In this document: positions 3,322 to 53,343 of the stretch, one piece after another
Layout: every line of letters starts with the position of its first letter
Position numbering within the stretch: the first letter of the stretch is position 1
Source: Nannocystales bacterium
GTDB lineage: Bacteria > Myxococcota_A > Polyangia > Nannocystales > Nannocystaceae
Assembly: GCA_050633305.1 (NCBI GenBank)
Contig: JBOEGF010000008.1
Location: 160,001 to 224,000, forward strand
Reading direction: 5' to 3'
DNA: 64,000 nt
Translations under genes and position numbers: made by a program
The notes under the pieces: model-generated
Told to the model about the DNA's origin: nothing
What the model saw: only the letters and a program-made list of their open reading frames with translations
The model's database searches: none

Positions 3322-3663
3322 CTACGAAAACAGATCTTCGAACAGCTCTTCGTTGAAGCCGACGATCAGCGTCTTGCCGACTCTGAGCGTGGGCGCGCGG
3401 AGATTTCCGGTCGGCCCGAGCATCGCCGCGACCGCGTCTTCCGAGCGCAGCGCATTCCCCTTGAAGCTGGACAGCTTCTTTCCTTTGGCCACGTGCAGCG
3501 TGGAGGCTGCGGCGAGCATTTCCGTCGCGACATCACGGCCGAGCTTGCGGCTGGCCGGAACCTTCTCTTGGGCAACGAGGCCCCGTGCATCCATGAACTT
3601 GGACGCTCTTGTGCAACTCGTTCAACCGTTGCGGTGGTAGTGCCACTGGATTTTTTTTGCCAT
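3322..3663 (-). CDS. ArsC-family (thioredoxin-fold) selenoprotein, Sec at codon 14 (UxxC)
   Basis: ATG 3663 with AAAGGA RBS reads MAKKIQWHYHRNG-TGA-TSCTRASKFM, in frame with ORF 3322..3594. C-terminal LGPTGNLRAPTLRVGKTLIVGFNEE is ArsC/Spx-like. SECIS-like hairpin follows the UGA. Confidence 0.9.
3587..3606 (-). promoter_or_regulatory. Candidate bacterial SECIS element
   Basis: GCGUCCA-AGUUCA-UGGAUGC 7-bp stem. G at loop position 2. Loop starts 22 nt after the UGA at 3624-3622. Confidence 0.75.
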
Positions 3664-3697: not shown

Positions 3698-4735
3698 TCA
3701 CAACTCGTCGCAGGCGCATCCCCAACTCTCCGGGAGAGATGGGCACGTGACCGAAGCGATCACGCGGTGGCCTTCGGAGTTCGGGTGAATGTAGTCGAAC
3801 CCTCGCAGTTCGGGGCGCATGAACCACTGCGGAACTTCGGATGCCCGCTGTGCGTCTGCAGCCAGCGCAGCCTCGTACGCATCGGGGTCGAGATCGGCGT
3901 GGGCCTTCTTCCAGGCGCGGTCTCTCTCAAACAGACGACGCATGGCGTCCACGTCCCGTGGCTCGGCGTCTTTGTGGCGGAGCTCGGAGTCGTAGAGATC
4001 GATCCCGATGTCGACGACCTCGGAGGGATCCCAGTCGACGTCCCCCTCGACGGAGCGCTTCACCGCGTAGCGACCGAGCGCATCCTTGGGATGGTTCCGC
4101 CCCGTGACGTAGTCGACGACGATACGCGTCGCCTCGGTCTTCGAGAGCCCGGCGAGCCCCTTGAACTTGCTGAGTCCGTCCTTGCCCCACGGGGTGGGAC
4201 TGAGGACAACGGCCTTCATGCCCTTGCCATGCGCCAACTCGACCAGCCCCTTGACGTAGTGGTTGGTCATCTCCGGCATCCCAATGCTGTTGAGACCCGT
4301 CGCCACGAAGGCCCAGTACTCGAACTGCTCCTCGTTGAGTTTGATGTGGCGGTTCTTGAGGACTTGCCCGCGGAAGCGCTGCTTCATCTGCAGCGCGCCG
4401 ATGCCGGTCTTGGACAGGTTCCGGATCTCGACGTTCTCGCAGACACCACCGAGTCGCTTGTGAAACGACTGCCCCGAAAATGCTCCGACGGATCCCGCGA
4501 TGACCGCGATCTTCACCGGCTTGTCGGGCTGTTTCCACCGCCACGTCGGCGCCGGCTCTTCGCTCTCCGGCAGGGGCGGAGTCGTAGCAAGAGCGGTCAT
4601 CAGACCGAGTGGGCCGAGCAGGGAAAGAGCCACGAAGGGAGTGTGCGGCGCCGTCCCGCGATGCGTCAACGATTCGACGAAAACGAGATGTGTTGACCTA
4701 GCCCTCTCGGACAACTCGGAGAGGTCGGGAGTCAT
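3698..4735 (-). CDS. SGNH/GDSL-like exported protein (start uncertain)
   Basis: Block I-like IAGSVG, block III GLNS, block V DYIHPN (DxxH). N-terminal hydrophobic stretch. Confidence 0.7.
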   Translation of the reverse strand: MTPDLSELSERARSTHLVFVESLTHRGTAPHTPFVALSLLGPLGLMTALATTPPLPESEEPAPTWRWKQPDKPVKIAVIAGSVGAFSGQSFHKRLGGVCENVEIRNLSKTGIGALQMKQRFRGQVLKNRHIKLNEEQFEYWAFVATGLNSIGMPEMTNHYVKGLVELAHGKGMKAVVLSPTPWGKDGLSKFKGLAGLSKTEATRIVVDYVTGRNHPKDALGRYAVKRSVEGDVDWDPSEVVDIGIDLYDSELRHKDAEPRDVDAMRRLFERDRAWKKAHADLDPDAYEAALAADAQRASEVPQWFMRPELRGFDYIHPNSEGHRVIASVTCPSLPESWGCACDEL

Positions 4736-4792
4736 GGATCGCCCGACGGGGGCCGCCAGACACCCACTCGGCGACCTCCGGGTCCCGCGGTG

Positions 4793-6157
4793 TCACCGCA
4801 TGGTTAGCCCGGCGGAACGACGCCGCTCCACGTAGCCGGCGATCAGCGCGTCGTACATCCACCCGCCGAGCACTTCGCGCCCCGCATGGTTGAGGTGCTT
4901 GCGGTCCGGCGCCGCCAACGGAGGCTTCTTGCGCCGCCAAGCGGCGAGACTGCCCTTGCCCCCCATCGCCGTGAAGCTGTCGAAGAACGCGCAACCAGCT
5001 TCTTCGGCGGCCTGCCGTTGCGCCTCGACCACGTCACCGAGCACGGCGGTCACGTCGAAGTCCAGGGAGCGAGCGCGATCGGTCATCGCGGTGACCAAGC
5101 AGGATGCGTCGGGTTTGCCCGCCCGCACCTTCATGATGCCTTTGACGAACTCTGCGGTGTACTGCGCTGGCTTGATCTTCTTGTTGGCGATTCGACGGGT
5201 GTCGTTGCCACCGAAGGTGAACACCAGCAGTGCGGGGTCTCGTTGCTTCACCTGCGCCGCGATGTGCTCGTCGTTCCACGCATGCATGCGCTTGGTGAAC
5301 GCACCGAGCCAGCTGAACTGGTCCCACACCAGGCCCTTGTCCGTCTCGAGCACGACACCGTAGGCGCGGACCTGACCACCACCGCCAGGGCGCACGGTGA
5401 CCGAGTGGCGCCCGTCGGCAACCTCGATCGTGTGAAACCGGTCCTCGAGGGCGTCGGCGGCGGTCTCCACAACGACCGGCTCGGCATCGTCGACCTGGAC
5501 CTTCAGCCGTCCGCCACGGCGCTGGCCGGCGTACCAAATCTCGAGGTGTGAGGAGTGACTCCCGAGTCCTTCCTTGCGGTTGCTGACCTTGGTACTGGCC
5601 CCGCCCGCGCTCCAGAATGTGGCGCCGCCGAGTCCATAGTGCCCGTCGCCTTTGCACAGGTAGCCGATGTAGCACTGCTCCCAGCCCTTCCCCTTGAGGT
5701 CGACCCAGCGGTGGATGTAGTTCGACATGTAGCGCTGAAGGAGCACCAAGCCGGCACCTCCATCGCCGAAGCGGGTTTGGAACTTGTTCCGCATGACCGA
5801 GGGCAGGTCGTCCATGCCGATCATCGACGCACCCAGATGCACGACGCGCACGACCTTGGTCTCGCCATCGTCGAGCGCAGCAAGCTGGTCGTAGAAGTAG
5901 TGGAGCGCCTCAGGGTTCTCGATCGCGTGATGCGGGGTGACCTCGTCCTCGGGGCGGGGTTTCCACATAGGCTTCTCAGGCTCCGGCTCCGCGACGACCT
6001 CGGCCTTTTTGGGCACGACAGCGGCCGCCACAGGCTTTTCGGGGGCAGCCACGGCCTGCGGGGTCGGACTCACCGGGGACTCCGACCCGCTCTCAGGCGC
6101 GGGCGACGAGCACCCCGCGAGGGCCAACACAGCAGCGACAAACGACGCTCGCATCAT
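4793..6157 (-). CDS. SGNH/GDSL lipoprotein, PatB/AlgJ-like putative acyltransferase
   Basis: Lipobox LAGC. HLGASM (block I, GAS variant), GGND, PDRKHLN. Paralog of 14040..15758. Confidence 0.85.
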   Translation of the reverse strand: MMRASFVAAVLALAGCSSPAPESGSESPVSPTPQAVAAPEKPVAAAVVPKKAEVVAEPEPEKPMWKPRPEDEVTPHHAIENPEALHYFYDQLAALDDGETKVVRVVHLGASMIGMDDLPSVMRNKFQTRFGDGGAGLVLLQRYMSNYIHRWVDLKGKGWEQCYIGYLCKGDGHYGLGGATFWSAGGASTKVSNRKEGLGSHSSHLEIWYAGQRRGGRLKVQVDDAEPVVVETAADALEDRFHTIEVADGRHSVTVRPGGGGQVRAYGVVLETDKGLVWDQFSWLGAFTKRMHAWNDEHIAAQVKQRDPALLVFTFGGNDTRRIANKKIKPAQYTAEFVKGIMKVRAGKPDASCLVTAMTDRARSLDFDVTAVLGDVVEAQRQAAEEAGCAFFDSFTAMGGKGSLAAWRRKKPPLAAPDRKHLNHAGREVLGGWMYDALIAGYVERRRSAGLTMR

Positions 6158-6160
6158 CGA

Positions 6161-7066
6161 TCAGTCTTCCTTCTTGAGTCGGCCGAGCAGCAAGCCCAGC
6201 TCGTAGCGGCGGCGGGCATCCTCATCGTTTTCGTCCTGCGTTGAGACGGCCTCGTACCCCAGACGCTCGAGCGTGGGGTTGCAGACCTTCGCCAGCATCG
6301 TCTGGGACGCGGCCGGCAGAGACTTCCACCGCGCGACACTGCGGGTGTCGACCTTGGCCCGCGCATAGGTTTTCCAGTCGCCGAACCCGACGTGCTCACT
6401 CGAGCCCAGCGCGCGTGCAACGATCCCATCGTCGTAGGCCTCATCGACGAACGCGAGCACCTCCGCGAGCACGGATTCGGGGTCCTCGGAGAGCCTCTCG
6501 TAGCGGATGCTCAGCGCATCATCGTCGTGTTCGGCGAGGTCCTCGATCGCGTTCGCCGTGTCGACCCAAGCGTGTGCAAACGCCTCGAGCGGCTGCGGGT
6601 AGCGCGTGACGTAGCGATGCAACTCCTCGACGTAGCCCCCGGTCTTGTCGGTGAGTTCAGCGATGCTGGCCGCAACGTCGAGTCCATGCCGATGCAGGCA
6701 GATGAACTTGACGTGCCCCGAGCACAGCCGGCGGATCGCAGGCACATGGAACGCGTCGAAGGCCGTCTTCTCGGCCCAACGCGTCTTGCCGGCTTTGGCT
6801 GCGTGGTCCTCGAAGAAGCCGAGGGCGAAGCGCCGCAGACGGCCCAGGACTTCGGCGTCCTCGAACCCGGCATAGCCCAGGCCCGACAACGCCCCGATCT
6901 TCAGGCCCTGCGCAAACGACTCCTCATGCAGGAACCGAGCGGCCCCACTGAGGACGTAGGTTTCCGGCGGGCACGCGATGTTCGGGTGCGCGTCGAGCAG
7001 CCGACGCAACAGCGTCGTGCCCGAGCGTGGCGTACCAAGGATGACAATCCCGGGCCGCTGCGTCAT
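6161..7066 (-). CDS. PAPS-dependent sulfotransferase (cytoplasmic)
   Basis: 5'-PSB GTPRSGTT, WAEKT, 3'-PB RHGLDVAAS, RYERL. No signal peptide. Confidence 0.93.
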   Translation of the reverse strand: MTQRPGIVILGTPRSGTTLLRRLLDAHPNIACPPETYVLSGAARFLHEESFAQGLKIGALSGLGYAGFEDAEVLGRLRRFALGFFEDHAAKAGKTRWAEKTAFDAFHVPAIRRLCSGHVKFICLHRHGLDVAASIAELTDKTGGYVEELHRYVTRYPQPLEAFAHAWVDTANAIEDLAEHDDDALSIRYERLSEDPESVLAEVLAFVDEAYDDGIVARALGSSEHVGFGDWKTYARAKVDTRSVARWKSLPAASQTMLAKVCNPTLERLGYEAVSTQDENDEDARRRYELGLLLGRLKKED

Positions 7067-7305
7067 GCCGTCTGTTCCCGCGCGAACGCGAGGATGCGGC
7101 TCACCGAGTCGAGGTTGTCGAGCGTGATGTCCTCAGGGCCCATCTTGGTGCCCGTGTGCTTCTCCAAGAAGACGAGGAGATCCACCATCGCGAACGAGTC
7201 CACGAGTCCGGTGGAGAACAACTCCGTCTCATCTTTGGCCTGGCTCAAATCGACCCGGGCCTTCTCTTCGAGGTACTGAATCAGTGCATCCCGTGTGAGC
7301 GCCAT
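7063..7305 (-). CDS. Acyl/aminoacyl carrier protein (DltC-like)
   Basis: 80 aa, acidic. FSTGLVDSFAMVDLL phosphopantetheine Ser motif. ATGA overlap with the sulfotransferase. Confidence 0.92.
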   Translation of the reverse strand: MALTRDALIQYLEEKARVDLSQAKDETELFSTGLVDSFAMVDLLVFLEKHTGTKMGPEDITLDNLDSVSRILAFAREQTA

Positions 7306-7422
7306 GACCGGCGGACCCTACCAGGCAGTGCCTAGGTTCGGAACAAACCGCGGCTACGGGCCCCCAACGCGCGAACGCCACCGGTTGAACGACGACGAGG
7401 GTTCGGAATTTGCCCTTGGAAG

Positions 7423-7438
7423 CGGCAATCGCGTTGCA
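7423..7438 (+). promoter_or_regulatory. Candidate sigma54 (-24/-12) promoter
   Basis: CGGCAATCGCGTTGCA: GG-N10-GC ending in TTGCA, about 90 nt upstream of the DUF1592-type gene. Confidence 0.4.
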
Positions 7439-7527
7439 AATCTCGGCTGGAGAATGCGCCTGTGCAGCCGATGCCTGTGGCACGGCAGGGGTTCTGTGGT
7501 CCACAATCGTCGCCAACTCGTACCGGG

Positions 7528-9299
<1,772 letters not shown>

Positions 9300-9303
<4 letters not shown>

Positions 9304-10724
9304 CAGCCATGCTCAATCGCCGACGCCTTCTCCAGGCCCTAGGCCTGGGGTCGAGTTCCCTGTTCCTACCCTCCCTGGGTCAGCGCAGCTTCGGGGACAC
9401 TGGCGACGGGCCTCCATGCCGCATCGCCTTCGTGATGACCTATCACGGCATCCTCTACGATGAGTGGAAGATGCGTCCGGGCGACGCGCCAGAGACCGGA
9501 CAATTCGACGCCGACATCTCGGGGCTGGACGCCTCCGAGTTCTCCACCATCCTCGAGCCCCTGGCGCCCTTTGCCAACCGCATGACGGTGCTCGATGGAC
9601 TCGACTTGGTCTCGGTCAAGCCCATGGGCGGAGGCATCGGGCACTTCATCAGCCCCATCAACGCCATGACCGGGGCCCGCACGGTGGGCGAAGACTCCGG
9701 TTCCCGCTCAACCGCCGTGTCGATCGACCAGCTGATCGCCGAAGGCATCGCCCGACCGGACCGGCTTCGTTCGGTGGAGGTCGGCATGCGCGACGAGCCG
9801 ATCAGCTACGCCACCGCGGGGCAGGCTCTGCCCCGAGAGACCCGTCCGGGGACGTTCTGGGACCGTTTGTTTCCCGGCGGTGCGGAGCCTGACAACGGCG
9901 CGCCGACCGTCGCCGCCCGGGTCCAGAACGGCCAGGCCTCGATGCTCGACCTCGTCGGGCAAGAATACGAAGCCCTGCAGCCGCGGCTCAGTGGTGAGGA
10001 TCGCCAGAAACTCGAGGCGCACCGGGACCTCATCCGGGACCTCGAGCAGCGCGTCGCAGGCTATGCGTCGGTCGACTGTACCGCCCCGCTGCCGCCCGAG
10101 GACGTCCTCAATGCCGACCCCGACCGCTACAACAAGGAAGCCAAGCAGTTCATGGACCTGCTCTCGGTGGCGTTCGCATGTGACCTCACCCGAGTTGCTA
10201 CGGTCGCGCTGACGCAGCTGCCCAACAGCGCGTTCGGAGCACCGGCCGGCGACGTCCACCAAGACTTCGCCCACCTGTGCGATCCGCCGAACCCGGATCC
10301 GACGGCCTACGAGCAGATGACGCGGTACCACCGCCACCACGCGACCCAGATCGCGGACTTCCTCCAGACACTCGACTCGGTGCCCGAGGGCGGCGGCACC
10401 ATGCTCGACAACACCTTGGTGGTCTGGCTCAACGAGATGGCCGACGGAACCCACAACCAGGACGTCTACCCGATGGTCCTGTTCGGCGGGTCCAACATCC
10501 CGCTGCGATGGGGTCGCTACCTGCGCTTCAACATGAACGGGCGCGTACCGCTGGGCTCGAACTTCTACAACAGCCAGCGCCCCTCTGGCATGCCTCAGAA
10601 CCGCGTCCTCGCCACGCTCGCCCAGGCTATGGGCGTGGGCCTCGACACTGTCGGCGATGCCGAAGTTGCGGCCGAGGGCGGGACGATCAACTGTAGCGGG
10701 GCCGTCGACGAGATGTTTTCCTGA
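9300..10724 (+). CDS. DUF1552-type Tat-exported protein
   Basis: NRRRLL Tat-like signal, SIDQLIA, AFACDLTRV, TMLDNT. ATGA overlap with the upstream gene, the usual partner arrangement. Confidence 0.88.
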
Positions 10725-10791
10725 CGAGCCGTTCGGCTTTTAGACCATCGCTCCGCTGTCGCGCGTATCGGCCCTCCCGAGGGACGACGAG

Positions 10792-11439
10792 ATGCGCAAG
10801 ACATGGATCATGATGTGGGTGCTGGGACTGGGTTGCGCGAGCACCGGGGAGCCAGATTCGACCGTCGAAGAGTTCTTGGCCGTAGACTCAGCCCAGAGCA
10901 GCGGCGTGCAAGCCCAGGGCTCGCCACCACCGCAAGTCCGTGCCCCCGCGCAGCTTCCGGACTCCGAAGATACGCGTTGGACGACGACCCACTACAACCT
11001 GACGATTCAGGTCGATCACCCCGCAGAGGCGCTCGGGAGGGCCAGAGCCGTCCTGCTCGAAGGTTCGGCGGCGATCACAAACTCGAGCCGACAACCCGAC
11101 AGCGCCACCCTCAACGCCACCGTTGGGCCGCAGACCTACGCCAACCTCCTCGCAGCGGTGGGAGAGCTCGGAGGCGCCATCACCAGCGAGAACTCGTCGC
11201 AGAGCAACACGGGCATTCAGGTCCGTCAGCTGCGCGAGCGCCTCGAGCTCGCTCAGCGCGCCGACGCCCAGCTCTCCGGGCGGCTGGAGGGCGTTCACGG
11301 TGACGACCTGGACGCGCTGATGTTCCTGCATGAACTCACCGCCCGCGAGCGGCAGAATCTGGAGAATCAGATCCGCTCGTACTGGGACCAGGCCGGAAAG
11401 ACCTACGTCTATTTGACGTTCCAGCGTCGCAGCGGCTGA
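10792..11439 (+). CDS. DUF4349-like lipoprotein
   Basis: Lipobox LGLGC, ferredoxin-like alpha/beta region followed by a coiled coil. Confidence 0.6.
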   Translation: MRKTWIMMWVLGLGCASTGEPDSTVEEFLAVDSAQSSGVQAQGSPPPQVRAPAQLPDSEDTRWTTTHYNLTIQVDHPAEALGRARAVLLEGSAAITNSSRQPDSATLNATVGPQTYANLLAAVGELGGAITSENSSQSNTGIQVRQLRERLELAQRADAQLSGRLEGVHGDDLDALMFLHELTARERQNLENQIRSYWDQAGKTYVYLTFQRRSG

Positions 11440-11446
11440 GCCGGCG

Positions 11447-13030
11447 TCACGACTCCAGCGTGGCCCGCAAGGCCTTGCGATCGATCTTGCCGTTGCTGTT
11501 GAGCGGGAACACCTCGAGCACTCGTAGCTGCGCGGGGACCATGTACCGCGGGAGGTGTTCCCCCATCGTGCGCAAAACGGCCTTCTCATCGAAGTCCTGC
11601 CCGGTCACGAACCCAACGATGCCCTCGGCCCCGCCGCTCTCGCTTCGTGGCCAATCGAGCGCCACCGCATCGTCCACGTCGGCCACCCGGCGCAGGACAG
11701 CCTCGACCTCGCCGAGTTCGACGCGGTAGCCACGCACCTTGATCTGAGAGTCGAGCCGGCCCAAAAAACGCAACGGTTCACCGTCCTTGCAGGGGCGGCG
11801 AACCAGGTCGCCAGTCCGATAGAAGACCTCGCTCTCCCCCGGCGGCGTCACGAACACAGCCGCAGTTTTCTCCGCGTCGCGCCAGTAGCCCAACGTGACC
11901 TGTGGACCTGCGAGCGCGAGCTCCCCGAGTTCGCCCGGCTCCACTTCGGCCAGCTCTGGCGTGAGCACCTTCGCACGCATCTGCTCGAAGGGGACTCCGA
12001 TCGGGACGACCCCGTTCTCCGCGTGCGCTTCCATGCATGAGCCCATCGGATATGCGGTGCACGCGAGTGTCAGCTCGGTCGGCCCATAGATGTTTTCGGT
12101 GACCGCACTGGGCGCGCAGTCCATCCAGGTTCGTCCGACGCTGACCGTCAGCGCCTCCCCGCAGAACAGGCTCAGACGGACGTCGGGGAAACAATCCGGG
12201 GACAGTGTCCGCGTCTCTTTCATCAGACGCGCGGTCGAGGGGACGGAGAACCACACGGTAATGCCTGCATCCACCACGTACTGGGCGGGCAACAGACGCT
12301 GCCGCATGTCAGGCACGCACAGGCAGCCGCCGACCGTCCACGGAGCGAAGAGGTCGAACAGCGAGAGGTCGAAGGTGACCTCGAACATGTGTGAGAAGCG
12401 GTCGTGCTGTCCCAGACCATAGCGATCCACCGCCCAGTCGAGGAATCGCTCGATGTTGCGGTGGGCGACCATCACCCCCTTGGGCTCCCCCGTGCTGCCC
12501 GAGGTGAACAGGAGGTAGGCGATGTCGTCAGGGCCAACCTCCGGCGCCTGCCAGGCCTTCGCCGCCAGAAGATCAGCGTCAGCGAGGACCGTGTGCCGAG
12601 CGTCGGCTTCGGCCGGATCGTAGGAGAAGCCCAGCGTGACCACGAGCAATGGCTTGGCCACGGCCGCCAACACATCCGCCAAGACACGCCGGCCACCAGG
12701 GTCAACGACCAACACGTCCGACTCGCTGCGGTCGATCATCTTGACGAGGCGCGCAGCCGGGTAGCTCGGCAGCATCGGCACGTACCCGTGCCCGCTACAC
12801 AGCGTCCCTAGGATCCCTACAAACCCCTGGAACGTCCGCTGCCCCAACACACAGCTCAGCGGGACCCCGCCCTCTGGTCTCCGCGCCATCAATGTGGCGG
12901 CGAGAGCCTTGGTCGCCTGCTCGACCTCCGCATAGGTCTGCATCTCTTCGCCGATCGTGATCGCGGGTCGCTGCGGCACACGTCGTGCGCTGTGCAGAAA
13001 TCCTTCGTGAAGGGCGCGAAAAGCACTCAT
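11447..13030 (-). CDS. Stand-alone amino acid adenylation enzyme, DltA-like
   Basis: YLLFTSGSTGEPKG, FDLS, LFCGE, YGPTE, YRTGD, QIKVRGYRVELGE, NGKIDR. Confidence 0.92.
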   Translation of the reverse strand: MSAFRALHEGFLHSARRVPQRPAITIGEEMQTYAEVEQATKALAATLMARRPEGGVPLSCVLGQRTFQGFVGILGTLCSGHGYVPMLPSYPAARLVKMIDRSESDVLVVDPGGRRVLADVLAAVAKPLLVVTLGFSYDPAEADARHTVLADADLLAAKAWQAPEVGPDDIAYLLFTSGSTGEPKGVMVAHRNIERFLDWAVDRYGLGQHDRFSHMFEVTFDLSLFDLFAPWTVGGCLCVPDMRQRLLPAQYVVDAGITVWFSVPSTARLMKETRTLSPDCFPDVRLSLFCGEALTVSVGRTWMDCAPSAVTENIYGPTELTLACTAYPMGSCMEAHAENGVVPIGVPFEQMRAKVLTPELAEVEPGELGELALAGPQVTLGYWRDAEKTAAVFVTPPGESEVFYRTGDLVRRPCKDGEPLRFLGRLDSQIKVRGYRVELGEVEAVLRRVADVDDAVALDWPRSESGGAEGIVGFVTGQDFDEKAVLRTMGEHLPRYMVPAQLRVLEVFPLNSNGKIDRKALRATLES

Positions 13031-13124
13031 GGTCCGGAGGCATTGTCATGGCAAGCGCGCCCGATGTCATGCCCAACCCGGATCTTCGGGGATCGAACGA
13101 GGCCGTCGTGTCACTTCGCTGAAG

Positions 13125-13649
13125 ATGGCCCGGTACACCCACGTCCTCGTCGTTCTCGTCCTGTCCCTCCCCGGGTGTTTTTCCGCCGACGACCCCCCGG
13201 CTGGGGTGGCGGCGGGCGAGTGTGTGCCCGACGGCGACCTGTGCTCGGTCAACGGAGATTGCTGCCTCTTCGATGGCTCTAGTCATCGTGGAGCGGCGCT
13301 GTGCGTGAGCTTCGAGGACGTCGCAGAGTGCAGTGGAACCTGATACGCCGACGGCGATTGCGACGCCGAGTGCTGTGGCTCCCTGCTCGACACCAGCAGC
13401 TACGGCGTGTGCGGCCCCTGCAGCGCCAACCCCTTCCCGCCAGCCGAGCCGCAGTCGGGCACTTGCCTCCAGGGGGTTGAGGTTTTTTGCACATGCGGCG
13501 ACGCCCTCGGGGTCCCGTGCGGAAGCGACCGTGCGCTGTTCGAGAAGAATTGCGCGTCGGGGAGTTCGTCCGCGGACACCTTCGCCTGCTGGGCTGAATT
13601 CGCGACAGGCGCCTGCGGAGATGCGCTCGATGCCTGCTCGCTCGACTGA
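13125..13649 (+). CDS. Cys-rich lipoprotein interrupted by in-frame TGA at 13341 (Sec readthrough, nonsense allele or base error)
   Basis: Lipobox LPGC. ORFs 13029..13343 and 13407..13649 share a frame and are joined by 21 sense codons. The TGA falls in CSGT-*-YADGDCDAECC. Confidence 0.7.
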
Positions 13650-13664
13650 CCGTATACTCCACGC

Positions 13665-14021
13665 ATGCGCCGCTCGAGTCTCATCGCACTGCTCGCCGCC
13701 TTGATGCTGCCTGGTTGTTTTATCGTCACCGACGACCCAGACGACGATGACAACGCCGGCGAGACCGGCAACGCGATGGAGGAGGTTCAAGTCTGTGCGG
13801 ACCCGGGCACCAACTCCGTGGAGAATGCGAACGGGGAGTGCGTCTGCCAAGAAGGGCTTGTGTGGTGCTCCGAGGACCCGGACGATGTCACGTGTTGTGC
13901 GGGAGCCTGCGGCGACCCGGGCACCAACAGCCAACTCGCCGAGGGTGACGAGTGCGAGTGCATGGCCGGCTTCGAGTGGTGTACCGACAACCCGATGGAC
14001 GTCAGCTGCTGCGCGAGCTGA
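13665..14021 (+). CDS. Small Cys-rich lipoprotein with two tandem EGF-like modules
   Basis: Lipobox LPGC. Duplicated CxDPGTNS..ECxCxxGxxWC..D...CC unit. Confidence 0.8.
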   Translation: MRRSSLIALLAALMLPGCFIVTDDPDDDDNAGETGNAMEEVQVCADPGTNSVENANGECVCQEGLVWCSEDPDDVTCCAGACGDPGTNSQLAEGDECECMAGFEWCTDNPMDVSCCAS

Positions 14022-14039
14022 CGCGTTCTCGTCGAAGTC

Positions 14040-15758
14040 CTACAGCCCCGGGAGCCCAGCGGGTTCGCCCTGCTTCGAGGGCGGCGCTTCGATCGGCACC
14101 ACCTTGGGCGTCGGCGGGGCCGGAGGCTCCGATGGGGTCTCCTCCTCCCCCCCGCCCGCGGGGGTCGGTGCGGGGGCAACGACAGCCTCGGTGTCGGCCG
14201 TTTTCTTCTCCGGTGCAGCCGCCGGGATGCCGTCTTTGTCGGCCCGGACGCGGTAGCCGACGTACGCACGCAGCAGCGCTCGGTAGAACAACTCGCCGAT
14301 GACCTGGTGGCCATTGGCGGTGGCGTGGCCCAAGTCCCCGCTCATCAACCGGGGGCTTCGCTTGTACCAACGACCCGCCGACCCATCGCCGCCCATCGCC
14401 TCGAAGGTGTCAAAGAAGGCACACCCGCTGTCCTGCGCAGCTTGCCGCTGCGCCTTGACCATCCGCGGAACAACCGCGCGCGAGACGACCTGCGCCCCCT
14501 GACGTTCCCCGTGATCGAGCGGCGCCATGACGATGCATGCCGCATCCGGCTTGGCCTTCTTCACCTTCGCGATCACGGCCCGGTACTCATCGGCGTACGT
14601 CGACATCTTCATCTTGCGAATCATGTCGTTGCCGCCAAACGTAAACACGACGAGGTCCGTGCCCCGATGTTGAAGCTGCGCGGCGAGGTGTGCGTCGTCG
14701 AACTCCATCATCCGGGTTGTGAACGCACCCACCAGCGCTGCCGAGTCCCAAACGACCCCGGGCCCGGGACGCTCCATGGTCACGCCGTACAGCCGAACCT
14801 GGCCCTCCCCCACCGACCTCACGGTGAGTTCGTGTGGGCCGTCGGGAACATCAACCGCATAGAAACGGTCCTCGAGGGTGTCGGCCGCGGTTTCAAGAAT
14901 GACCTTCTCTCCCCCGTCCACCTGGACCCGCAGGTGTCCGCCCTCTGGCTGTGCGGCGTAGTAGAGCTCGAAGCGGGACACGGCGCCCGAGCTGCGTTCT
15001 GCGTGGGGCGCAAAGTCGCTCTGGCCGCCGCCCCATGAGCTGAATGTGGTGCCGCCGAGCCCGTAGTGCCCATCGCTGCGGCACTTGTGGATGATGAAGC
15101 ACTTCTTCCACGAGTCGTTGTGGGAGAACTTTACCTCGCGATGCCGGTACGAAGTGTTCGGAGGCGCCATCAAGTGGAAGCCGTGCCCACCGTCGCCAAA
15201 GCGGTTCTGCACCCGTCTGCGAATCGCTCCGGGGATGCCGTCAACGCCAATCGACGAGTCGCCCCAGTGCATGACCCGGACCACCGTCCCCTCGATTCCG
15301 GCGTCGGCTCGCGCAAGGTTTTCGAAGAACCCGTCGAGTTCGTCCCCAGCGAACAACTCCAACGGTTTGACCGCCTTCTTGTCGTCTCCCGGACGGGCTT
15401 CGTACGGCGCCAACGTGGGCGCCTCCTCGACCTTCACGACCTCGCGCGGCGGCGAGACCAGCGGCTCGGGGTCCTTGCTGGCGAGCACCTCTTGGGCGAC
15501 CTCCTCAACCTCCTCAGCGCGCTCGGCCTCCGCCTCGATCTCATCCGCATCGAACGGCCGCCCCACGAGGTTCCAAAACGGCAGCGGCTCCCCCGACTTC
15601 CAAGGCCGCGCAAACTCCAGGTCCGGCACCACATAGGTCGCGACCAGACAGGCCGCGACGGCAGCCATCGCAGGCATGACCTGCCGCAGCATCGACATCT
15701 GCAACGCCTCAGCCTCGCCGAGTTCTTCTTCCTTCTTGAGGACGCGTGGGTTGACCAT
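14040..15758 (-). CDS. SGNH/GDSL membrane-anchored protein, PatB/AlgJ-like
   Basis: N-terminal TM segment, HWGDSS, GGND, GDLGHAT. Starts 19 nt after the MBOAT stop. Confidence 0.88.
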   Translation of the reverse strand: MVNPRVLKKEEELGEAEALQMSMLRQVMPAMAAVAACLVATYVVPDLEFARPWKSGEPLPFWNLVGRPFDADEIEAEAERAEEVEEVAQEVLASKDPEPLVSPPREVVKVEEAPTLAPYEARPGDDKKAVKPLELFAGDELDGFFENLARADAGIEGTVVRVMHWGDSSIGVDGIPGAIRRRVQNRFGDGGHGFHLMAPPNTSYRHREVKFSHNDSWKKCFIIHKCRSDGHYGLGGTTFSSWGGGQSDFAPHAERSSGAVSRFELYYAAQPEGGHLRVQVDGGEKVILETAADTLEDRFYAVDVPDGPHELTVRSVGEGQVRLYGVTMERPGPGVVWDSAALVGAFTTRMMEFDDAHLAAQLQHRGTDLVVFTFGGNDMIRKMKMSTYADEYRAVIAKVKKAKPDAACIVMAPLDHGERQGAQVVSRAVVPRMVKAQRQAAQDSGCAFFDTFEAMGGDGSAGRWYKRSPRLMSGDLGHATANGHQVIGELFYRALLRAYVGYRVRADKDGIPAAAPEKKTADTEAVVAPAPTPAGGGEEETPSEPPAPPTPKVVPIEAPPSKQGEPAGLPGL

Positions 15759-15777
15759 GGGAACTCGCGGAGAAGAA

Positions 15778-17421
15778 CTAGAACTGGAAGTAGATGAACG
15801 CGCGGGGCGAGCCGTCCATCAAACGCATGAGTCCGTAGAACAGGCCTGAAGCCGCGAGGCCGACCAGCACCCCGGGGGTCTTGCGGAACAGACCTCGGAG
15901 GTGAACGTCGACCCAACGGACCGGGGTGAAGTGATACGCGAGCCCGAGGACGAGCGCGACCCATACCCCGGTGCTGCCCAAGCCGGGGCGGACGCCCCAG
16001 GTATCGAATGTGAGCAGCGCGCCGATGAAGCGCCGCGCCGTCTCAAAGTCCGGAGCGCGGAAGAAGATCCGCGAGAGCACGACCAGGTGGAACGTGAGCA
16101 GCACGTGCACCGCCACCAAGGTCTTTCCCTTGGGCATCGGCAGCCACGCGATCACCAAGAACAGCACGCCAACGCCGCCTCCGAGAATCGAGCCTTGCTG
16201 CCAGTCGAGCTCGAGTACGTAGCGGCCAAAAGCAGCGACCGCAACACTGAGGGCCACGGTGGCGACCGGCCACCCCACGATGCCCAGCACGGTCAGCTTC
16301 CGATCGCGCATTCGGTTCCAACGGTTGAAAACCACCGCGCCGGCGTGGATGTTGGCGTAGATGACGAAGTTCCAGCTCGCCCCGTGCCACATGCCCACCA
16401 GGAACATCGTGATCCACAGCGCGTAGTAACCCCCCTTGGAGCCCAGCCGCGAGAGGATCTGGAAGAAGAGGTAGTCGCGGAGCCACGCCGACAGCGTCAT
16501 GTGCCAGCGCCGCCAGTACTCGGCAATGTCCTTGGACTGGTACGGCCGGTTGAAGTTCTCGGGCAGCGTGAAGCCCAGCATCTTGCCCAGGCCGATGGCG
16601 ATGTCCGAGTAGCCCGAGAAGTCCGCGTAGATCTGTAGCGTGTAGGCGTACAGTGCGATCAGCAGCTCGGGCGAGGTGAAGGTGTCCGGAGCATCGAAGA
16701 TACGGTCCGTGAGCGCGACGGCGATGAAGTCACCGAGCACGACCTTCTTGGCCAGACCTTTGAGAACCCGGAAGGCGCCGTCCTCGAGCCCGTCACGCGT
16801 GAAGCGAGGGCCCCGTTGCAGTTGCGGCAGGAACTCTTTCGCGCGGACGATCGGACCGGCGACGAGCTGAGGAAAGAACGCGACGAACAGCGCGAAGCGG
16901 GTGAACGAGGTCTCGGGGACCAGCCGGCCTCGCCAAACATCGATCGTGTAGCTGAGACTCTGGAACGTGTAGAAGCTGATGCCCAACGGCAAGATGACGT
17001 CGAGATGAATGACCTCGATGTCGACGCCGAACAGACCGAACACATCGGCGAAACCGGACAGGAAGAAGTTCGCGTACTTGAAGTAGGCGAGCAGGCCCAG
17101 GTTTCCGGCCAGACTCAGGTACAGCCAAACGTTTCGCTTCCGGCTCGCCGCCGCCTTGATCGCGGCGTCCTTGGACTTGAAGCCCTCGTGGTGCCGGTAG
17201 ATGGCCGACCCGCAGACGTAGTCGAGACAGGTCGAGAAGACGAGCAGGCCCGCGAAGTACGCAGGGGCCGGAGGCGGCGTGGTTTTCGGCCCAGCTGCGT
17301 AGAAGAAATAGCTCGCGACGAGGAGGAAAACGACGCGGGCCGTGGGCCGGTTCGACAACGCCCAGAACCCCGCCAAGACGGGCAGAGCGAAGAGCAGGAA
17401 GTCGAACGTGGGAAAAAGCAT
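15778..17421 (-). CDS. MBOAT family O-acyltransferase (AlgI/PatA/DltB-like)
   Basis: LPLGISFYTFQ, DFSGYSDIAIG, WRRWHMTLS, catalytic GMWHGA, C-terminal FIYFQF. Confidence 0.95.
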   Translation of the reverse strand: MLFPTFDFLLFALPVLAGFWALSNRPTARVVFLLVASYFFYAAGPKTTPPPAPAYFAGLLVFSTCLDYVCGSAIYRHHEGFKSKDAAIKAAASRKRNVWLYLSLAGNLGLLAYFKYANFFLSGFADVFGLFGVDIEVIHLDVILPLGISFYTFQSLSYTIDVWRGRLVPETSFTRFALFVAFFPQLVAGPIVRAKEFLPQLQRGPRFTRDGLEDGAFRVLKGLAKKVVLGDFIAVALTDRIFDAPDTFTSPELLIALYAYTLQIYADFSGYSDIAIGLGKMLGFTLPENFNRPYQSKDIAEYWRRWHMTLSAWLRDYLFFQILSRLGSKGGYYALWITMFLVGMWHGASWNFVIYANIHAGAVVFNRWNRMRDRKLTVLGIVGWPVATVALSVAVAAFGRYVLELDWQQGSILGGGVGVLFLVIAWLPMPKGKTLVAVHVLLTFHLVVLSRIFFRAPDFETARRFIGALLTFDTWGVRPGLGSTGVWVALVLGLAYHFTPVRWVDVHLRGLFRKTPGVLVGLAASGLFYGLMRLMDGSPRAFIYFQF

Positions 17422-20476: not shown

Positions 20477-20583
20477 GAGCCCGTTCTCAGTCGTCCCACG
20501 GGCTTGCGATTCCGCACACGCCGTTCGCACACAAGGTGGTCGGAGGTCTGCAACTCCCGCACACGTACGTCGTCTTCGATGCG

Positions 20584-23346
20584 ATGGCCCGCGTGCGACG
20601 ACCCAGTGTTTGGAGTTCCAAGAGCAAACCTGCCGTAGCGCCGCTTCTCCTGTGGGGACTGAGCGCGTTGGCCGGTTGTTCGGACGACACGGGTGCCGCC
20701 GAACCGTCGGATGACGGGCCAGCGTGCATCGGCAAGTGTGACGGGTTCAACAGCATCACGGGTGCACTCCCGCTCGCCCCGCACGCCGCCACCTGGGACG
20801 GCCGAGTCCTGCTCGCCGACGTCGAAGGCGAGTGCCGTGTCGTCGCCGTTCGGCCCGACGCGATCGAGATCCGCGAAGGCGGTCTGACCTTCGGCCCCGA
20901 GGTGTTCTCCGAAGGCCTGCCCTGCCCCACGACCGTGGGCCGTCCCGCGCTCGCGATGGCCACCCCCGACGGGCACAACCCCTTTCCCAGCACCCCCGAC
21001 GGCTCTCTCGACTTCGCGGGCGCGCACCTGACCTACGACGTCACCCTACTGGAGGGCAGTGAGGCCGGCCAGCTGGTGCGCCGCGCGGGCACGCTGATCA
21101 CGACACAAGGCGAGGTCGTTTCAGCCCAATGGGATGACGAGCCCACACCCGTCGGCATCAACGGCCACAACCCTACGCTGAGCGCCGATGGTGGCCTGCT
21201 GGTGTTTGAGCGCGAGGATGGGCTGTGGTTCGCCCTCGCCCAGGGTGATGGTTTTGGGGAGCCCGCGCCGTTGAGCCGGCTGCACGAGCACGCGGCGGAT
21301 TCGGTGCGAGGCCTCCCGCTTTCAACCCGGTACCCACTCGCAAGTGAAGCCCTGCGCGCAGCCGATGGTACGCGGATCGAGGCTGGTCAAGCGCTCGTCG
21401 GTCAACGCCCCTCCCTTGGACAGGACGGCACGTCGTTGTTCTTCGAGTCCGAAGGCGGGACCCGGGTGCTCAGCCAGCGAAGTGGGTTCGCGATTCGGCA
21501 GCTCGACGGCCACATCAACGCAGGCAACGACGATGCGCCCGCATTCCACCTCAGCCTCGGACGCAGCGGCAGCGTCTACGCGCCCTACCCCGGCGCCCAC
21601 CGACTCCCCGTCCGGGAGCACCGGCTTCCCACCGTCTCCTTGTTCGGCTTCACCGAGCATGACGGAGAGTTCCAGAGCAGCTACGACGAGATCGACTTCG
21701 TCGCCTTCTCCGACCGCGACTACGTCACCTACCTGCCGATGACCGCCACCGCGCTCGCCGATGGAACGCTCGATGAGCATCAGTCGGGCGACCTCTCCGG
21801 GCGATTCAACAACGCGGTTCTCGACCCCGGCGCATCGCTCGGACACGCGGCGGTCACAGGCGCTCACGGCCAGGCGGTCTTCCTCCCCACCGGCGCAGGA
21901 CTTGTCGTCCCCGCCAGCGACAGTACCGTCGCGCCGCAACGCGGCTACAACGTCTCGATGTTCGTCCGGCCCATGGCCGACGATGTCCGCGGTCCCCTCT
22001 TGGATTGGCCCGGCGTCGTGAGCATCACGCTCGAAGACGACGGAGTCGTCATTCGTGGCACCGCCCCGGAGAGTGAACCGACCAACTCCGTCCACCCGGT
22101 GCTCGCGCGCGACACATGGACCCACGTCGCGGTCTCCTACGACGGCAACTCCGGCCGCCTGCGGACCTACATCAACGGCGAGCGGATCGCTCAAGACCAG
22201 TTTGCGCGCCGCGGATTCCCAACCGGAGATGGCGGCGCGATCACGCTCGGCCGCGCGACGGCCAGTGGCGACGGGGCCGTGCTCGCCCTGGACGAAGTGA
22301 GCATCTCCCGGGAGCTCCGGTTCGACGAGGAGGTCTATGCAGAGGCGCGACAAGAGGAGTTCTTCCGCCGCCCGATCGCGTCGATCGACCGCATCCGCGA
22401 AGAGGTCGATCTCCCGCTGGGCCTCGACGCCGAGCAGTTTGTCATGCCCGACCGAGCCAACCTGGAGGACAACGCCACCGAGCTGGGCATGCTGTTGTTC
22501 TTCGATACACGGCTGTCGAGCAACCAGGAGATCTCCTGCGCGACGTGCCACGACCCGGAGCTTGCCTTCACCGATGGCCGCCCTGTCGGCGCGGCCGTCG
22601 ATGGCAGCGACCTCACCCGGAGCACCCCGACGGTCTTCAACCGGGCGCTGTCGACCATGCAGTTCTGGGATGGCCGCTCTCCAAGCCTCGAGCAACAGTC
22701 CGTCCTCCCCATTTTCAACAGCGCCGAGATGGGGCTGACCCGGCAAGAGTTCATCGAGTACCTCGAGAGCGTTCCCGAGTACGTTGACCGGTTCAACGAT
22801 GTGTTCCGCCGCCCCCCCAGCATCTCGGCCGCAGGCTTCGCCCTCGCCGCGTTCCAGCGCACGCAGCTCGCAGGAGAGTCTCCCGTCGACCACTACGAGG
22901 CCGGCGACGCTGACGCTCTCTCCGAGTCCGAGATTCGCGGCCGCGCGCTGTTCAACGGCAAGGCCCGCTGCGTCGCCTGCCACAGCGGCTCCAACTTCTC
23001 CGACGAGCAGCTTCATGCCGTCGAGGTTTTCGAGCACACCGACCTGGGTGCGTTCCTCGTCCGCCGCGGCCGCGAGCGATTCCTCCGCACGTTCAAGACG
23101 CCGACGCTACGGAACATCGATGTCACGGCGCCATACTTTCATGATGGCTCCGCCGCGACCCTCGAAGAGGTCGTCTCGCTCTACAATGCAGGCGCTCTGC
23201 CAAACGCACAGAACGTCGACCCCGAGCTTCACCCGCTCGGCCTGACCGCAGACGAACAGACCGACCTTGTCGCGTTCCTCCGCGCGCTGACCAGCCCGAA
23301 CGCGATTCAGACATTCGACGTCCCGCTGCCCGCCCTGGCCGAGTAG
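20584..23346 (+). CDS. Di-heme cytochrome c peroxidase/MauG-family lipoprotein with LamG-like domain
   Basis: CATCH, CVACH, QFWDGR, FKTPTLRN, TAPYFHDG. LamG-like WTHVAVSYDG..YING. Lipobox LAGC. Start uncertain. Confidence 0.9.
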   Translation: MARVRRPSVWSSKSKPAVAPLLLWGLSALAGCSDDTGAAEPSDDGPACIGKCDGFNSITGALPLAPHAATWDGRVLLADVEGECRVVAVRPDAIEIREGGLTFGPEVFSEGLPCPTTVGRPALAMATPDGHNPFPSTPDGSLDFAGAHLTYDVTLLEGSEAGQLVRRAGTLITTQGEVVSAQWDDEPTPVGINGHNPTLSADGGLLVFEREDGLWFALAQGDGFGEPAPLSRLHEHAADSVRGLPLSTRYPLASEALRAADGTRIEAGQALVGQRPSLGQDGTSLFFESEGGTRVLSQRSGFAIRQLDGHINAGNDDAPAFHLSLGRSGSVYAPYPGAHRLPVREHRLPTVSLFGFTEHDGEFQSSYDEIDFVAFSDRDYVTYLPMTATALADGTLDEHQSGDLSGRFNNAVLDPGASLGHAAVTGAHGQAVFLPTGAGLVVPASDSTVAPQRGYNVSMFVRPMADDVRGPLLDWPGVVSITLEDDGVVIRGTAPESEPTNSVHPVLARDTWTHVAVSYDGNSGRLRTYINGERIAQDQFARRGFPTGDGGAITLGRATASGDGAVLALDEVSISRELRFDEEVYAEARQEEFFRRPIASIDRIREEVDLPLGLDAEQFVMPDRANLEDNATELGMLLFFDTRLSSNQEISCATCHDPELAFTDGRPVGAAVDGSDLTRSTPTVFNRALSTMQFWDGRSPSLEQQSVLPIFNSAEMGLTRQEFIEYLESVPEYVDRFNDVFRRPPSISAAGFALAAFQRTQLAGESPVDHYEAGDADALSESEIRGRALFNGKARCVACHSGSNFSDEQLHAVEVFEHTDLGAFLVRRGRERFLRTFKTPTLRNIDVTAPYFHDGSAATLEEVVSLYNAGALPNAQNVDPELHPLGLTADEQTDLVAFLRALTSPNAIQTFDVPLPALAE

Positions 23347-51810: not shown

Positions 51811-53343
51811 CTACATGCCGCGCACGTCGTCGTGGACAACCAACGTCCACTCGAAAGCGTAGGTCGTTTCGCCGAATCCTCGAACCTCGAGGGTCTTGGC
51901 CACGATGCCGTCGGCGTCTCGCGTCCCCCCTTGCAACGGGCCGACCTCGACCTCGACCTTGTCGATTTCCGAGACCACCACCCGTTCTTGCAACCTGACC
52001 TCGTGGGGCTGAGCGCCCAGGTTGCTGATCGTGACACGGACGGTGCGGGGCTTACGAACCCACGAGCTCAACGGCTTGCGAGTGTGCTCAGCGGGTTCAA
52101 CCTTGCGATGGACCCTGAGGTCCGGGTTGGGACCCCACCCCAGCTCGAAGCTCTCCCCTGGCGCAACGAACAGCGTCGAGGTTCGACCCACGAATCCACC
52201 ATACCGCCGCAGCTCAACCGGGCCAGCGAGCAGCGGATGCGGACCGTGGTGTGTTTGGGTCGTGCGCAGGAGCACCGCCTCGACCTTCTCGGGGCGACAG
52301 ACCAGCTCGGTCCGAGCTTCAGACTCGAACGAGAACAACGGCACATGATGCGGACGGCCGTTGCTCGACACGGTGCGTGGACCCTCAGCCTTGAGCGCGA
52401 CGGGTTCACCGCCATCGTCAACACCGGGCATCTCGTCCCGGACCTCCGCGGCCCCTTCCCCGGTCGTCGAAATGACCTGGTCCCGAGCTTGTACCGAAAC
52501 CGCTTGGGTCTTTGCCTTGAGGGAGAGTGTATCCGTCTCGAGCCGTGGCGCGGTGGACCCCAAGGACGGACGCTCGGTCGAGAATGAGACTTCTGCATCC
52601 GTCCAATCCTCGCCGGTCGCTTGCCAGACACACGCCTGGGCCTCGAACAGAACACCCCCTTCCGGTTGCAGGGTCGCGACGTGAGCCGGGCGCCAGAGTG
52701 CACCGCCGACGGCGTAGCGAAGCGTCAACTCGATGCTCGACGGTCCATCGGCCTCGACTTGGATCTCCAGTTCAAACTGCCCAACGACGGAGCGGGTTTC
52801 GTCGTCGATCGACTCCTGCATGCGAAGCGCCTCGGACAAGGCCCTCTGAGCCCGAATCCGTCGGCGCTCGCTGTCGACGCGAGCATCCACCGCCTCACCA
52901 AGTTTTTCGCGCAGCATCGCGATCGCCGCCAGTCTCTTCGAGACGTCCCGACCCAGCGCGATGTCCTGGGACAACTCGGCCAAGAGAAGCGCCTCGACCT
53001 CCCGGGTCGCCGCAAGGGCCTCGCTGGAGACCTCAAACCGGAACTGAGTATCTTCGACCGCTGAACGACGCTCAGTCTCCACCCCCATCCAGTGCGCAAC
53101 ACGATCGCGCTGCGCCTCCTTGGTCGTCGCAGCGTGTCGAACCACGCGAGCTTGAACGACACGTCCGCCCGCAGAAGCCTGGGCACTGAGCGTCTTGTCG
53201 ACGACCACCGCGGCCACGTCGGGCACGCACAGCGTGTGCAACCCCGCGGGGAGTTCCACCGATCCGCTACGGGTAACCAACGCACGGTCCTCGAGCACGG
53301 TGACCTGTGTGATGGGGAGTTCGATGCTGGTTGCGTCGCTCAT
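51811..53343 (-). CDS. DUF4140/DUF4139 (MuiA-like) protein
   Basis: ITQVTVLEDRALVTR, QATGEDW, LLAGP, ERVVVSE. Confidence 0.88.
   Translation of the reverse strand: MSDATSIELPITQVTVLEDRALVTRSGSVELPAGLHTLCVPDVAAVVVDKTLSAQASAGGRVVQARVVRHAATTKEAQRDRVAHWMGVETERRSAVEDTQFRFEVSSEALAATREVEALLLAELSQDIALGRDVSKRLAAIAMLREKLGEAVDARVDSERRRIRAQRALSEALRMQESIDDETRSVVGQFELEIQVEADGPSSIELTLRYAVGGALWRPAHVATLQPEGGVLFEAQACVWQATGEDWTDAEVSFSTERPSLGSTAPRLETDTLSLKAKTQAVSVQARDQVISTTGEGAAEVRDEMPGVDDGGEPVALKAEGPRTVSSNGRPHHVPLFSFESEARTELVCRPEKVEAVLLRTTQTHHGPHPLLAGPVELRRYGGFVGRTSTLFVAPGESFELGWGPNPDLRVHRKVEPAEHTRKPLSSWVRKPRTVRVTISNLGAQPHEVRLQERVVVSEIDKVEVEVGPLQGGTRDADGIVAKTLEVRGFGETTYAFEWTLVVHDDVRGM

Follow-up and report, generated by a model that had tools for sequence, protein, structure and literature searches.

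A Dlt-like acyl-export cassette with a carrier-linked sulfotransferase in Nannocystaceae: a proposed route to N-sulfo-aminoacyl groups on an envelope glycan

Among described systems, the closest to the gene cassette analysed here, which lies in a 64,000-nucleotide stretch of a Nannocystales bacterium (assembly GCA_050633305.1, contig JBOEGF010000008.1, positions 160,001 to 224,000; hereafter the window), are those in which an MBOAT membrane acyltransferase works with an extracytoplasmic SGNH protein. According to PMC12148441, characterised MBOAT-SGNH pairs with an FxYxxF motif act on envelope polymers, PatA acylates the tyrosine of this motif and then passes the group to the SGNH serine, and the MBOAT/SGNH pathways other than Dlt draw on acyl-CoA and work without a carrier. 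Diderm systems in which a carrier feeds aminoacylation are described as well, namely the Alm system acting on the Vibrio cholerae envelope (PMC3783018) and the dra system of Bordetella pertussis (PMC9410548), and SulN of sulfazecin biosynthesis is described as carrying out N-sulfonation of a carrier-bound amine in trans, with 3'-phosphoadenosine-5'-phosphosulfate (PAPS) as donor (PMC11298585). Our literature search found no sulfotransferase joined to a carrier-fed MBOAT, AT3 or LpxL-like system, although a published MBOAT-cluster survey and its supplements lay outside its scope and may mention such loci. The cassette in the window joins an adenylation enzyme, a carrier and a sulfotransferase to an MBOAT and SGNH proteins. 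On balance we lean towards a reading in which an amino acid would be N-sulfated while bound to the carrier, and an envelope glycan would receive the exported N-sulfo-aminoacyl group.

A conserved cassette in the window and in relatives

The cassette consists of seven intact open reading frames (ORFs) on the minus strand, whose codon-position GC is what genes of this genome (66% GC) usually show. In cassette order, with the two inserts that interrupt it, the features are as follows (aa, amino acids):

15778..17421, minus strand: MBOAT membrane acyltransferase of the PatA/AlgI type, 547 aa (PF03062, E 3e-21)
14040..15758, minus strand: SGNH1, 572 aa, Ape1-like, with an N-terminal anchor at aa 27-45 (PF13472; hydropathy)
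13125..14021, plus strand: insert 1, small Cys-rich ORFs at 13125-13343, 13407-13649 and 13665-14021 (no convincing Pfam match)
11447..13030, minus strand: stand-alone amino-acid adenylation enzyme, 527 aa (PF00501; TIGR01733, 332 bits against a cut-off of 317)
7462..11439, plus strand: insert 2, a DUF1592/1588/1595/1587/1585 protein, a DUF1552 protein and a DUF4349 lipoprotein (Pfam)
7063..7305, minus strand: carrier protein, 80 aa, phosphopantetheine site Ser37 (PF00550, above cut-off)
6161..7066, minus strand: PAPS-dependent sulfotransferase, 301 aa (PF13469, Sulfotransfer_3, E 9e-25)
4793..6157, minus strand: SGNH2, 454 aa, lipoprotein-type N-terminus (LAGC) (PF13472; SGNH1 paralogue)
3698..4735, minus strand: SGNH3, at most 345 aa, true start probably later (weak PF13472 match, E 0.007)

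The successive intergenic distances are 19 (MBOAT to SGNH1), 1,009, 4,141, -4, 3 (sulfotransferase to SGNH2) and 57 nucleotides (nt), the negative value being a 4-nt ATGA overlap of carrier and sulfotransferase. The first-pass annotation had read these genes as one row of seven; its order, families and spacings hold, but the contiguity that it implied does not, since opposite-strand inserts of 4.1 kb and 1.0 kb rule out a contiguous seven-gene operon in this genome. The longer insert places three plus-strand genes between the adenylation enzyme and the carrier, and the shorter one places the Cys-rich ORFs between SGNH1 and the adenylation enzyme. Neither belongs to the system as judged from relative loci: the genes of insert 2 were found in none of 13, and insert 1 is represented at the corresponding position by its third Cys-rich ORF alone, in three relatives of the same genus. 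Of the genomes compared, no other has the DUF1592/1588/1595/1587/1585 lipoprotein and DUF1552 pair (7462-10724, plus strand) inside the cluster.

In relatives the cassette is a conserved and real system. Orthologues of the sulfotransferase (62-91% identity) and of the adenylation enzyme each occur in 13 of 23 same-family genomes, a fourteenth adenylation match being discounted as a 36%-identity match to a non-ribosomal peptide synthetase (NRPS); the two genes agree in all 15 family genomes that are at least 90% complete, with both present in 8 and neither in 7. A scan of a species-level genome collection gave 28 sulfotransferase loci, 27 of them from Myxococcota, and in all 27 the gene immediately upstream of the sulfotransferase encodes a carrier. 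The five core genes (MBOAT, SGNH1, adenylation enzyme, carrier, sulfotransferase) keep the window's order in 15 of the 27, SGNH2 has an orthologue in 17 of the fetched stretches and SGNH3 in 7, counts that several short contigs limit; adenylation enzyme and carrier are less than 200 nt apart in 13 of the 15 five-gene loci. Insertions of 2.6 to 45 kb recur in several genomes at the SGNH1/adenylation or adenylation/carrier junction, and the carrier/sulfotransferase junction is never interrupted among the loci compared. Co-occurrence in related genomes, on which the first-pass annotation had staked its proposal, was thus found for carrier and sulfotransferase (27/27) and for the five-gene order (15/27). 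The cassette is also carried by the cultured Enhygromyxa salina and Paraliomyxa miuraensis.

A system that is real in relatives might nevertheless be decaying in the window, broken by the two insertions. The split operon would fit this, as would the promoter-like matches upstream of the MBOAT and adenylation genes, which stay at chance level (2 found, 1.5 expected). However, all seven ORFs are full length with intact catalytic residues and are 83-98% identical to their closest relatives, and breaks at these two junctions are found repeatedly in other genomes; we regard decay as very improbable.

Carrier, sulfotransferase and the loaded unit

Five sulfotransferase residues, Arg14, Glu35, Lys100, Arg126 and Ser134, are invariant in 45 of 45 aligned rows, and we take them to represent the 5'-phosphosulfate-binding loop, the 3'-phosphate-binding motif and the catalytic Glu and Lys. 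Asp36-Ser37 of the carrier is equally invariant (45/45). Hydropathy gave no signal or membrane segment in the sulfotransferase, and the two adenosine 5'-phosphosulfate kinases of this genome provide the capacity to make PAPS.

The sulfotransferase is tied to the carrier well beyond the family. For a census of upstream carriers, sequences at least 95% identical were removed and at least 1.7 kb of upstream sequence was required, which kept 56 of 76 loci; a carrier was found within 2 kb in 34/34 Nannocystaceae-like loci and 20/22 other non-redundant ones (54/56). Of the two exceptions, L145 has the carrier within the same chain as the sulfotransferase, and L147 comes from a genome with one family carrier about 530 kb away. 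None of the nine other PF13469 genes of the window's genome lies within 2 kb of a PF00550 match (nearest, about 13 kb). Four weaker sulfotransferases (177-200 bits, against at least 368 for full-length clade members) stand in glycan loci without a carrier, loci whose flanks are short; they fall outside the single clade formed by the 42 carrier-linked rows (SH-aLRT 99 in a quick tree). A plasmid search with the sulfotransferase gave no match at 1e-15.

Further layouts came from sixty metagenome loci and two 401-genome phylum samples, in which five candidates were scored per genome and misses are possible. Five kinds of exit enzyme stand beside the sulfotransferase-carrier head: the fused-shuttle MBOAT, a DltX/DltB-type MBOAT, AT3, an LpxL-like acyltransferase and GNAT. 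Fused-shuttle MBOATs also accompany the sulfotransferase in contigs of 40% GC. Short, DltB-size MBOATs with DltX-like ORFs and DltD-like partners were found at six loci (L113, L146, L148-L151), one DltB-type locus being adjoined by cysD/cysN-like genes. Locus L061 (7903-13362), from a Caulobacteraceae metagenome-assembled genome, is the one locus of the 28 outside Myxococcota; its sulfotransferase, 44% identical to that of the window, is accompanied by a carrier, an AlmE-like adenylation enzyme, an SqdB-like gene and an LpxL/VexE-like acyltransferase, and no MBOAT was seen over 20 kb. GNAT-fold partners occur in polysaccharide loci, and there carrier and sulfotransferase often flank a BtrK-like pyridoxal-phosphate (PLP) decarboxylase (TIGR03099-like, below cut-off).

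Several side observations concern these layouts. L061 resembles AlmEFG with a sulfotransferase added. The DltX-like microprotein ORFs of the six short-MBOAT loci end in F(R/A/F)Y(A/Q)(G/A)F, for example FRYAGF; their hosts are diderm Myxococcota and Pseudomonadota, and the DltD-like proteins are unannotated. On two contigs of 40% GC (L077:729-11562 and L113:347-12388, the latter with several frame breaks), the clade's sulfotransferase and one or two MBOATs are followed downstream by an NRPS whose first domain is a second, different sulfotransferase (sulfotransferase-condensation-adenylation-carrier domain order, ST-C-A-T). The decarboxylase loci (L072, L079, L081, L089, L092, L096, L100, L101 and L104) combine adenylation enzyme, carrier and sulfotransferase with a GNAT-fold or unannotated partner, several of them in polysaccharide loci, and their cassettes are related to the exosortase-A-associated TIGR03098/TIGR03099 pair.

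Gene fusions bind the sulfotransferase more closely still to the other enzymes of the head. A search of 1.84 billion representative proteins yielded long clade proteins, and of the 14 scanned, ten are fusions (two adenylation-sulfotransferase, two decarboxylase-sulfotransferase, six sulfotransferase-A-T-AT3) and the other four hold sulfotransferase domains only. One decarboxylase-sulfotransferase fusion is from Aestuariibacter halophilus, and one ST-A-T-AT3 chain is from the cultured Thalassotalea sp. Y01, with a T domain just below cut-off. A single chain for activation, tethering, sulfation and export is the clearest sign that the tethered unit would be the one sulfated. The six chains (P0132, P0135, P0137, P0140, P0148 and P0160) are 1,230-1,460 aa long, have a condensation remnant after the sulfotransferase domain and show a glycine-type pocket; L145:10983-15305 is of the same single-chain type, its AT3 part not detected by Pfam at E 0.005.

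In terms of gene neighbourhood, then, the sulfotransferase clade follows the carrier and not the exporter. The coupling of the two proteins that had been proposed from the window is borne out by the fusions, by its retention across five exit enzymes and by the negative controls, and these patterns make sulfation on the carrier probable. The sulfotransferase could instead act off the carrier in the cytoplasm, on a lipid-linked glycan precursor or a protein tyrosine, with the remaining genes carrying out plain Dlt-like aminoacylation of the same polymer. The closest structures, which are tyrosylprotein sulfotransferases, would suit this alternative, as would a weak match to the NoeE model and the fact that several clade members are neighbours of GT4, Wzx and Wzy genes in polysaccharide loci. 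Yet the sulfotransferase keeps its carrier while exit enzymes vary, fusions join it to A, T and decarboxylase domains, and the carrier-less sulfotransferases of glycan loci lie outside the clade, all of which makes off-carrier action unlikely.

The identity of the loaded unit was approached through the adenylation pocket. In the window enzyme, it reads D221 L222 F225 F261 L288 C290 I314 L322 A323 K515 (DLFFLCILAK), a code that is nearly constant in Nannocystaceae, in three DltB-type loci and in one adenylation-sulfotransferase fusion. The nearest solved pockets are 8K4R, 6AKD, 4OXI and the DltA structures, which we take to be VinM and IdnL7 (L-Ala), AlmE (Gly) and DltA (D-Ala), respectively. 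It has two Phe as in 8K4R/6AKD, and Leu236, Cys301 and Ala331 (GrsA numbering) as in 4OXI/DltA. Cys301 disfavours L-Ala, and the enzyme likely loads Gly or D-Ala, to judge by its pocket. The L061 pocket, DLHLYCLVVK, is close to DLHLFCLIAK of 4OXI. The AT3 fusions have DILQLGMIWK, presumably a glycine code, which was read by hand from printed segments, the aligner having placed Cys at one column. The decarboxylase-linked adenylation enzymes have Arg in the pocket, fitting an Asp or Glu that would be tethered by its side chain and decarboxylated to beta-Ala or gamma-aminobutyric acid (GABA); BtrK is an analogue for decarboxylation of a carrier-tethered unit. Because all three unit types (Gly/D-Ala, Gly, decarboxylated Asp/Glu) would offer an amine and no hydroxyl, the pockets point to N-sulfation, though we hold nitrogen as the sulfated atom to be an even call.

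The rival chemistry is O-sulfation on the carrier, in which a serine or small hydroxy acid would leave as its O-sulfate or undergo elimination, giving an unsaturated acyl group, in the manner of CurM and olefin synthase. A small pocket can admit serine, and the three nearest folds are all O-sulfotransferases. Against this stand the glycine-type code of six fusions and the decarboxylase partners, which indicate units without a hydroxyl; the cluster, moreover, has no thioesterase or eliminase among its Pfam matches. We consider O-sulfation improbable, slightly more so than action off the carrier.

Several points weigh against carrier-bound N-sulfation or bear on it from both sides. The fold closest to the sulfotransferase model (predicted local distance difference test, pLDDT, 76) is that of the O-sulfating tyrosylprotein sulfotransferases TPST1/2 (Z 19.5-20.7; best root-mean-square deviation 3.2 over 245 aligned residues). 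In favour of the reading, the nearest bacterial folds are the olefin-synthase (Z 17.0) and CurM (Z 16.1) sulfotransferase domains, which act on substrates bound to acyl carrier protein, though as O-sulfating enzymes; all others score at most 13.4. The predicted sulfotransferase-carrier complex supports it weakly, with a score of 0.36, against 0.00 for the best of three controls, with contact agreement of at least 77% and partner pLDDT of at least 79. Among solved pairs 116 of 157 reach the mark applied, among mismatched pairs 2 of 215; 18 of those solved pairs and both mismatches lie at 0.60 or below, a band in which predictions fail more often than they hold unless the pair was a likely one to begin with; the score is weak and may reflect memory of CurM-like complexes. 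The window's pocket code matches no solved enzyme exactly, Ser is admissible, and substrate calls draw on known specificity codes and the likeness of pockets. The clade comes from a quick tree in which the L147 row was in the wrong frame and was ignored.

Export arm, acceptor and neighbouring genes

The MBOAT matches DltB structures at E 2e-30 and has a conserved WHG histidine (His346) and the C-terminal acyl-shuttle motif FIYFQF; the WHG His and a C-terminal FxYxxF are present in 21 of 21 aligned cluster MBOATs, the window copy included. No carrier or cassette-type sulfotransferase occurs in the 15 plain MBOAT-SGNH paralogue loci compared (5-20 kb each), and one of these has an AMP-binding match. 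At 52-61% identity to these plain paralogues, the cluster MBOAT is likely a duplicate that was recruited to the carrier head. The same genome holds two plain MBOAT-SGNH pairs, at G000:C18:272900-276150 (L124) and G000:C2:46000-48600 (L127), with Ape1-like and AlgX-like SGNH partners, as well as two orphan Ape1-like SGNH genes on contigs C5 and C27.

Over aa 156-492, SGNH1 matches PDB 4K3U (E 7e-11), and it has weak matches to 8GKD/8GLD; all are listed as GDSL/SGNH proteins, and we take them to be Ape1 esterases; no PatB structure was among the matches listed. Its triad, Ser168/Asp475/His478, is invariant in 8/8 aligned rows. SGNH2 is an Ape1-like paralogue of SGNH1 (about 44% identity) with an intact triad and a weak DUF459 match below cut-off; both align with Ape1 over its full length, and neither matches the DltD and AlgX models. 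In SGNH3, Ser82/Asn149/Asp314/His317 are invariant in 8/8 rows, and a low-confidence model (pLDDT 56, used for a fold call only) matches SGNH esterases (best E 9e-4).

Despite its esterase-like relatives, SGNH1 is likely the transferase, because it has an N-terminal membrane anchor and follows the MBOAT in cluster loci and plain MBOAT-SGNH loci alike. SGNH2 and SGNH3 are likely accessory, as a second transferase or as editing esterases, because they are variably present and placed among loci. The relay through several SGNH transferases envisaged in the first-pass annotation is not supported on this evidence, with two of the three proteins accessory and SGNH1 and SGNH2 being Ape1-like without a DltD or AlgX match. 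Arg381 of SGNH1, present in 21/21 cluster copies against 2/15 plain copies, was considered as a sulfamate-binding residue and given little weight, because Arg is common at the equivalent place in SGNH enzymes.

In the proposed route, the adenylation enzyme would form an aminoacyl-AMP, likely of glycine or D-alanine, and then a thioester on carrier Ser37, and the cytoplasmic sulfotransferase would move sulfate from PAPS onto the amine of the carrier-bound unit. Through His346, the MBOAT would acylate the FIYFQF tyrosine, from which the group would pass to Ser168 of SGNH1 and on to an acceptor hydroxyl of a periplasmic envelope glycan, most likely peptidoglycan. The loading, MBOAT and SGNH1 transfer steps are modelled on known families; sulfation on the carrier, its placing on nitrogen and the acceptor are drawn from comparative genomics. 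We infer an envelope glycan as the acceptor; this is the weakest link, with the likeness to Ape1 as the sole pointer to peptidoglycan.

On-carrier N-sulfation may also be right with an acceptor that is not a glycan, such as a lipid (lipid A or an aminolipid), a lipoprotein or a released small molecule. The Caulobacteraceae locus joins the same head to an LpxL-like exit enzyme in an AlmEFG-like manner, the window's cluster is without polysaccharide genes, and the dra target of B. pertussis is an unidentified outer-membrane component (PMC9410548). Characterised FxYxxF MBOAT-SGNH pairs, in contrast, modify envelope polymers (PMC12148441), and the protein with which SGNH1 and SGNH2 align in full binds peptidoglycan through CBM35 (same source). 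We think a non-glycan acceptor unlikely, about on a par with action off the carrier.

Export to an envelope glycan also has evidence to contend with. PMC12148441 describes Ape1 as an esterase and not a transferase, and the cluster holds no glycan-synthesis gene, so that the acceptor is not named by context. Outside Nannocystaceae the system is sparse, with 6 of 400 other genomes positive in one phylum sample and 1 of 400 in the second, and a Caulobacteraceae survey found it in the seed genome only (1/301) and in none of the 300 other family genomes; five to seven candidates were scored per genome in these distribution surveys. The loci are related by kinship, and their counts are not independent trials.

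Elsewhere in the window, a conserved 90-aa ORF (3322-3594, minus strand) without a Pfam match, presumably ArsC/Spx-like, follows SGNH3 in four same-genus loci. On the plus strand, a 936-aa protein (20536-23346) that has a LamG-like domain and, at its C-terminus, a MauG/MbnH-type di-haem domain follows a two-lobed M16 peptidase, an order kept in same-genus relatives. Two tandem DUF4140/DUF4139 proteins (51811-55445, minus strand) precede an RND efflux trio at 58081-63780.

Comparison with known systems

Judged by its parts, the cassette works like Dlt but is not Dlt. It shares with DltXABCD, which D-alanylates teichoic acids, a stand-alone adenylation enzyme, a carrier, an MBOAT, an FxYxxF tyrosine shuttle and an extracytoplasmic SGNH protein, and the full DltX/DltB/DltD-like layout is seen in related sulfotransferase loci, not in the window. 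The window cassette differs in its MBOAT-fused shuttle, its Ape1-like SGNH protein, the added sulfotransferase, the diderm host and the predicted anionic substituent. Models of the Dlt proteins remain below cut-off throughout: TIGR01734 (260 of 560 bits) and NF003417 (269 of 476) for the adenylation enzyme, whose pocket reads DLFFLCILAK against DLMTLCTVAK in DltA (3DHV), the DltC equivalog models for the carrier, and TIGR04091 (174 of 375 bits) for the MBOAT. The window's SGNH proteins have no DltD match in Pfam or NCBIfam.

With the PatA/PatB/Ape1 system of peptidoglycan O-acetylation (and AlgI/J/X) the cassette shares a PatA-type MBOAT with fused FxYxxF and SGNH proteins that match Ape1; in the cassette, by contrast, an adenylation enzyme, a carrier and a sulfotransferase are linked to them. 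PatA-type MBOATs with fused shuttles can thus be carrier-linked, contrary to a statement in PMC12148441. SulN is a precedent in reaction type; it serves an NRPS tripeptide that is released as an antibiotic, whereas the cassette would treat a single residue, with predicted export by a membrane acyltransferase. The CurM and olefin-synthase domains, the nearest bacterial folds (Z 16-17), O-sulfate a beta-hydroxyacyl unit that a thioesterase then removes by decarboxylative elimination, a partner that the window cluster lacks. AlmEFG lipid A glycylation also joins an adenylation enzyme, a carrier and an acyltransferase in a diderm, with a similar pocket (4OXI), and its pocket code is almost identical in the Caulobacteraceae locus, where the partner is LpxL-like. 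It differs in having no sulfotransferase and in using an LPLAT acyltransferase, against the MBOAT-SGNH pair of the window cassette.

More tentatively, we suggest that the carrier-dependent N-sulfotransferase clade may represent an undescribed biosynthetic head that supplies sulfamates of Gly, D-Ala, beta-Ala or GABA to at least five kinds of acyltransferase and that serves peptidoglycan O-acylation in Nannocystaceae, which would give this unannotated clade a hypothetical function. The predicted N-sulfo-aminoacyl ester has no report in the literature searched; such esters are labile, and standard alkaline extractions would lose them. If the reading is right, sulfate would reach periplasmic polymers without PAPS crossing the membrane, and the sulfamate would be a new kind of cell-wall substituent. 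Dlt, Alm and dra add a free amine and with it a positive charge, whereas sulfation of the amine before export would add a negative one, making the cassette a charge-reversed Dlt.

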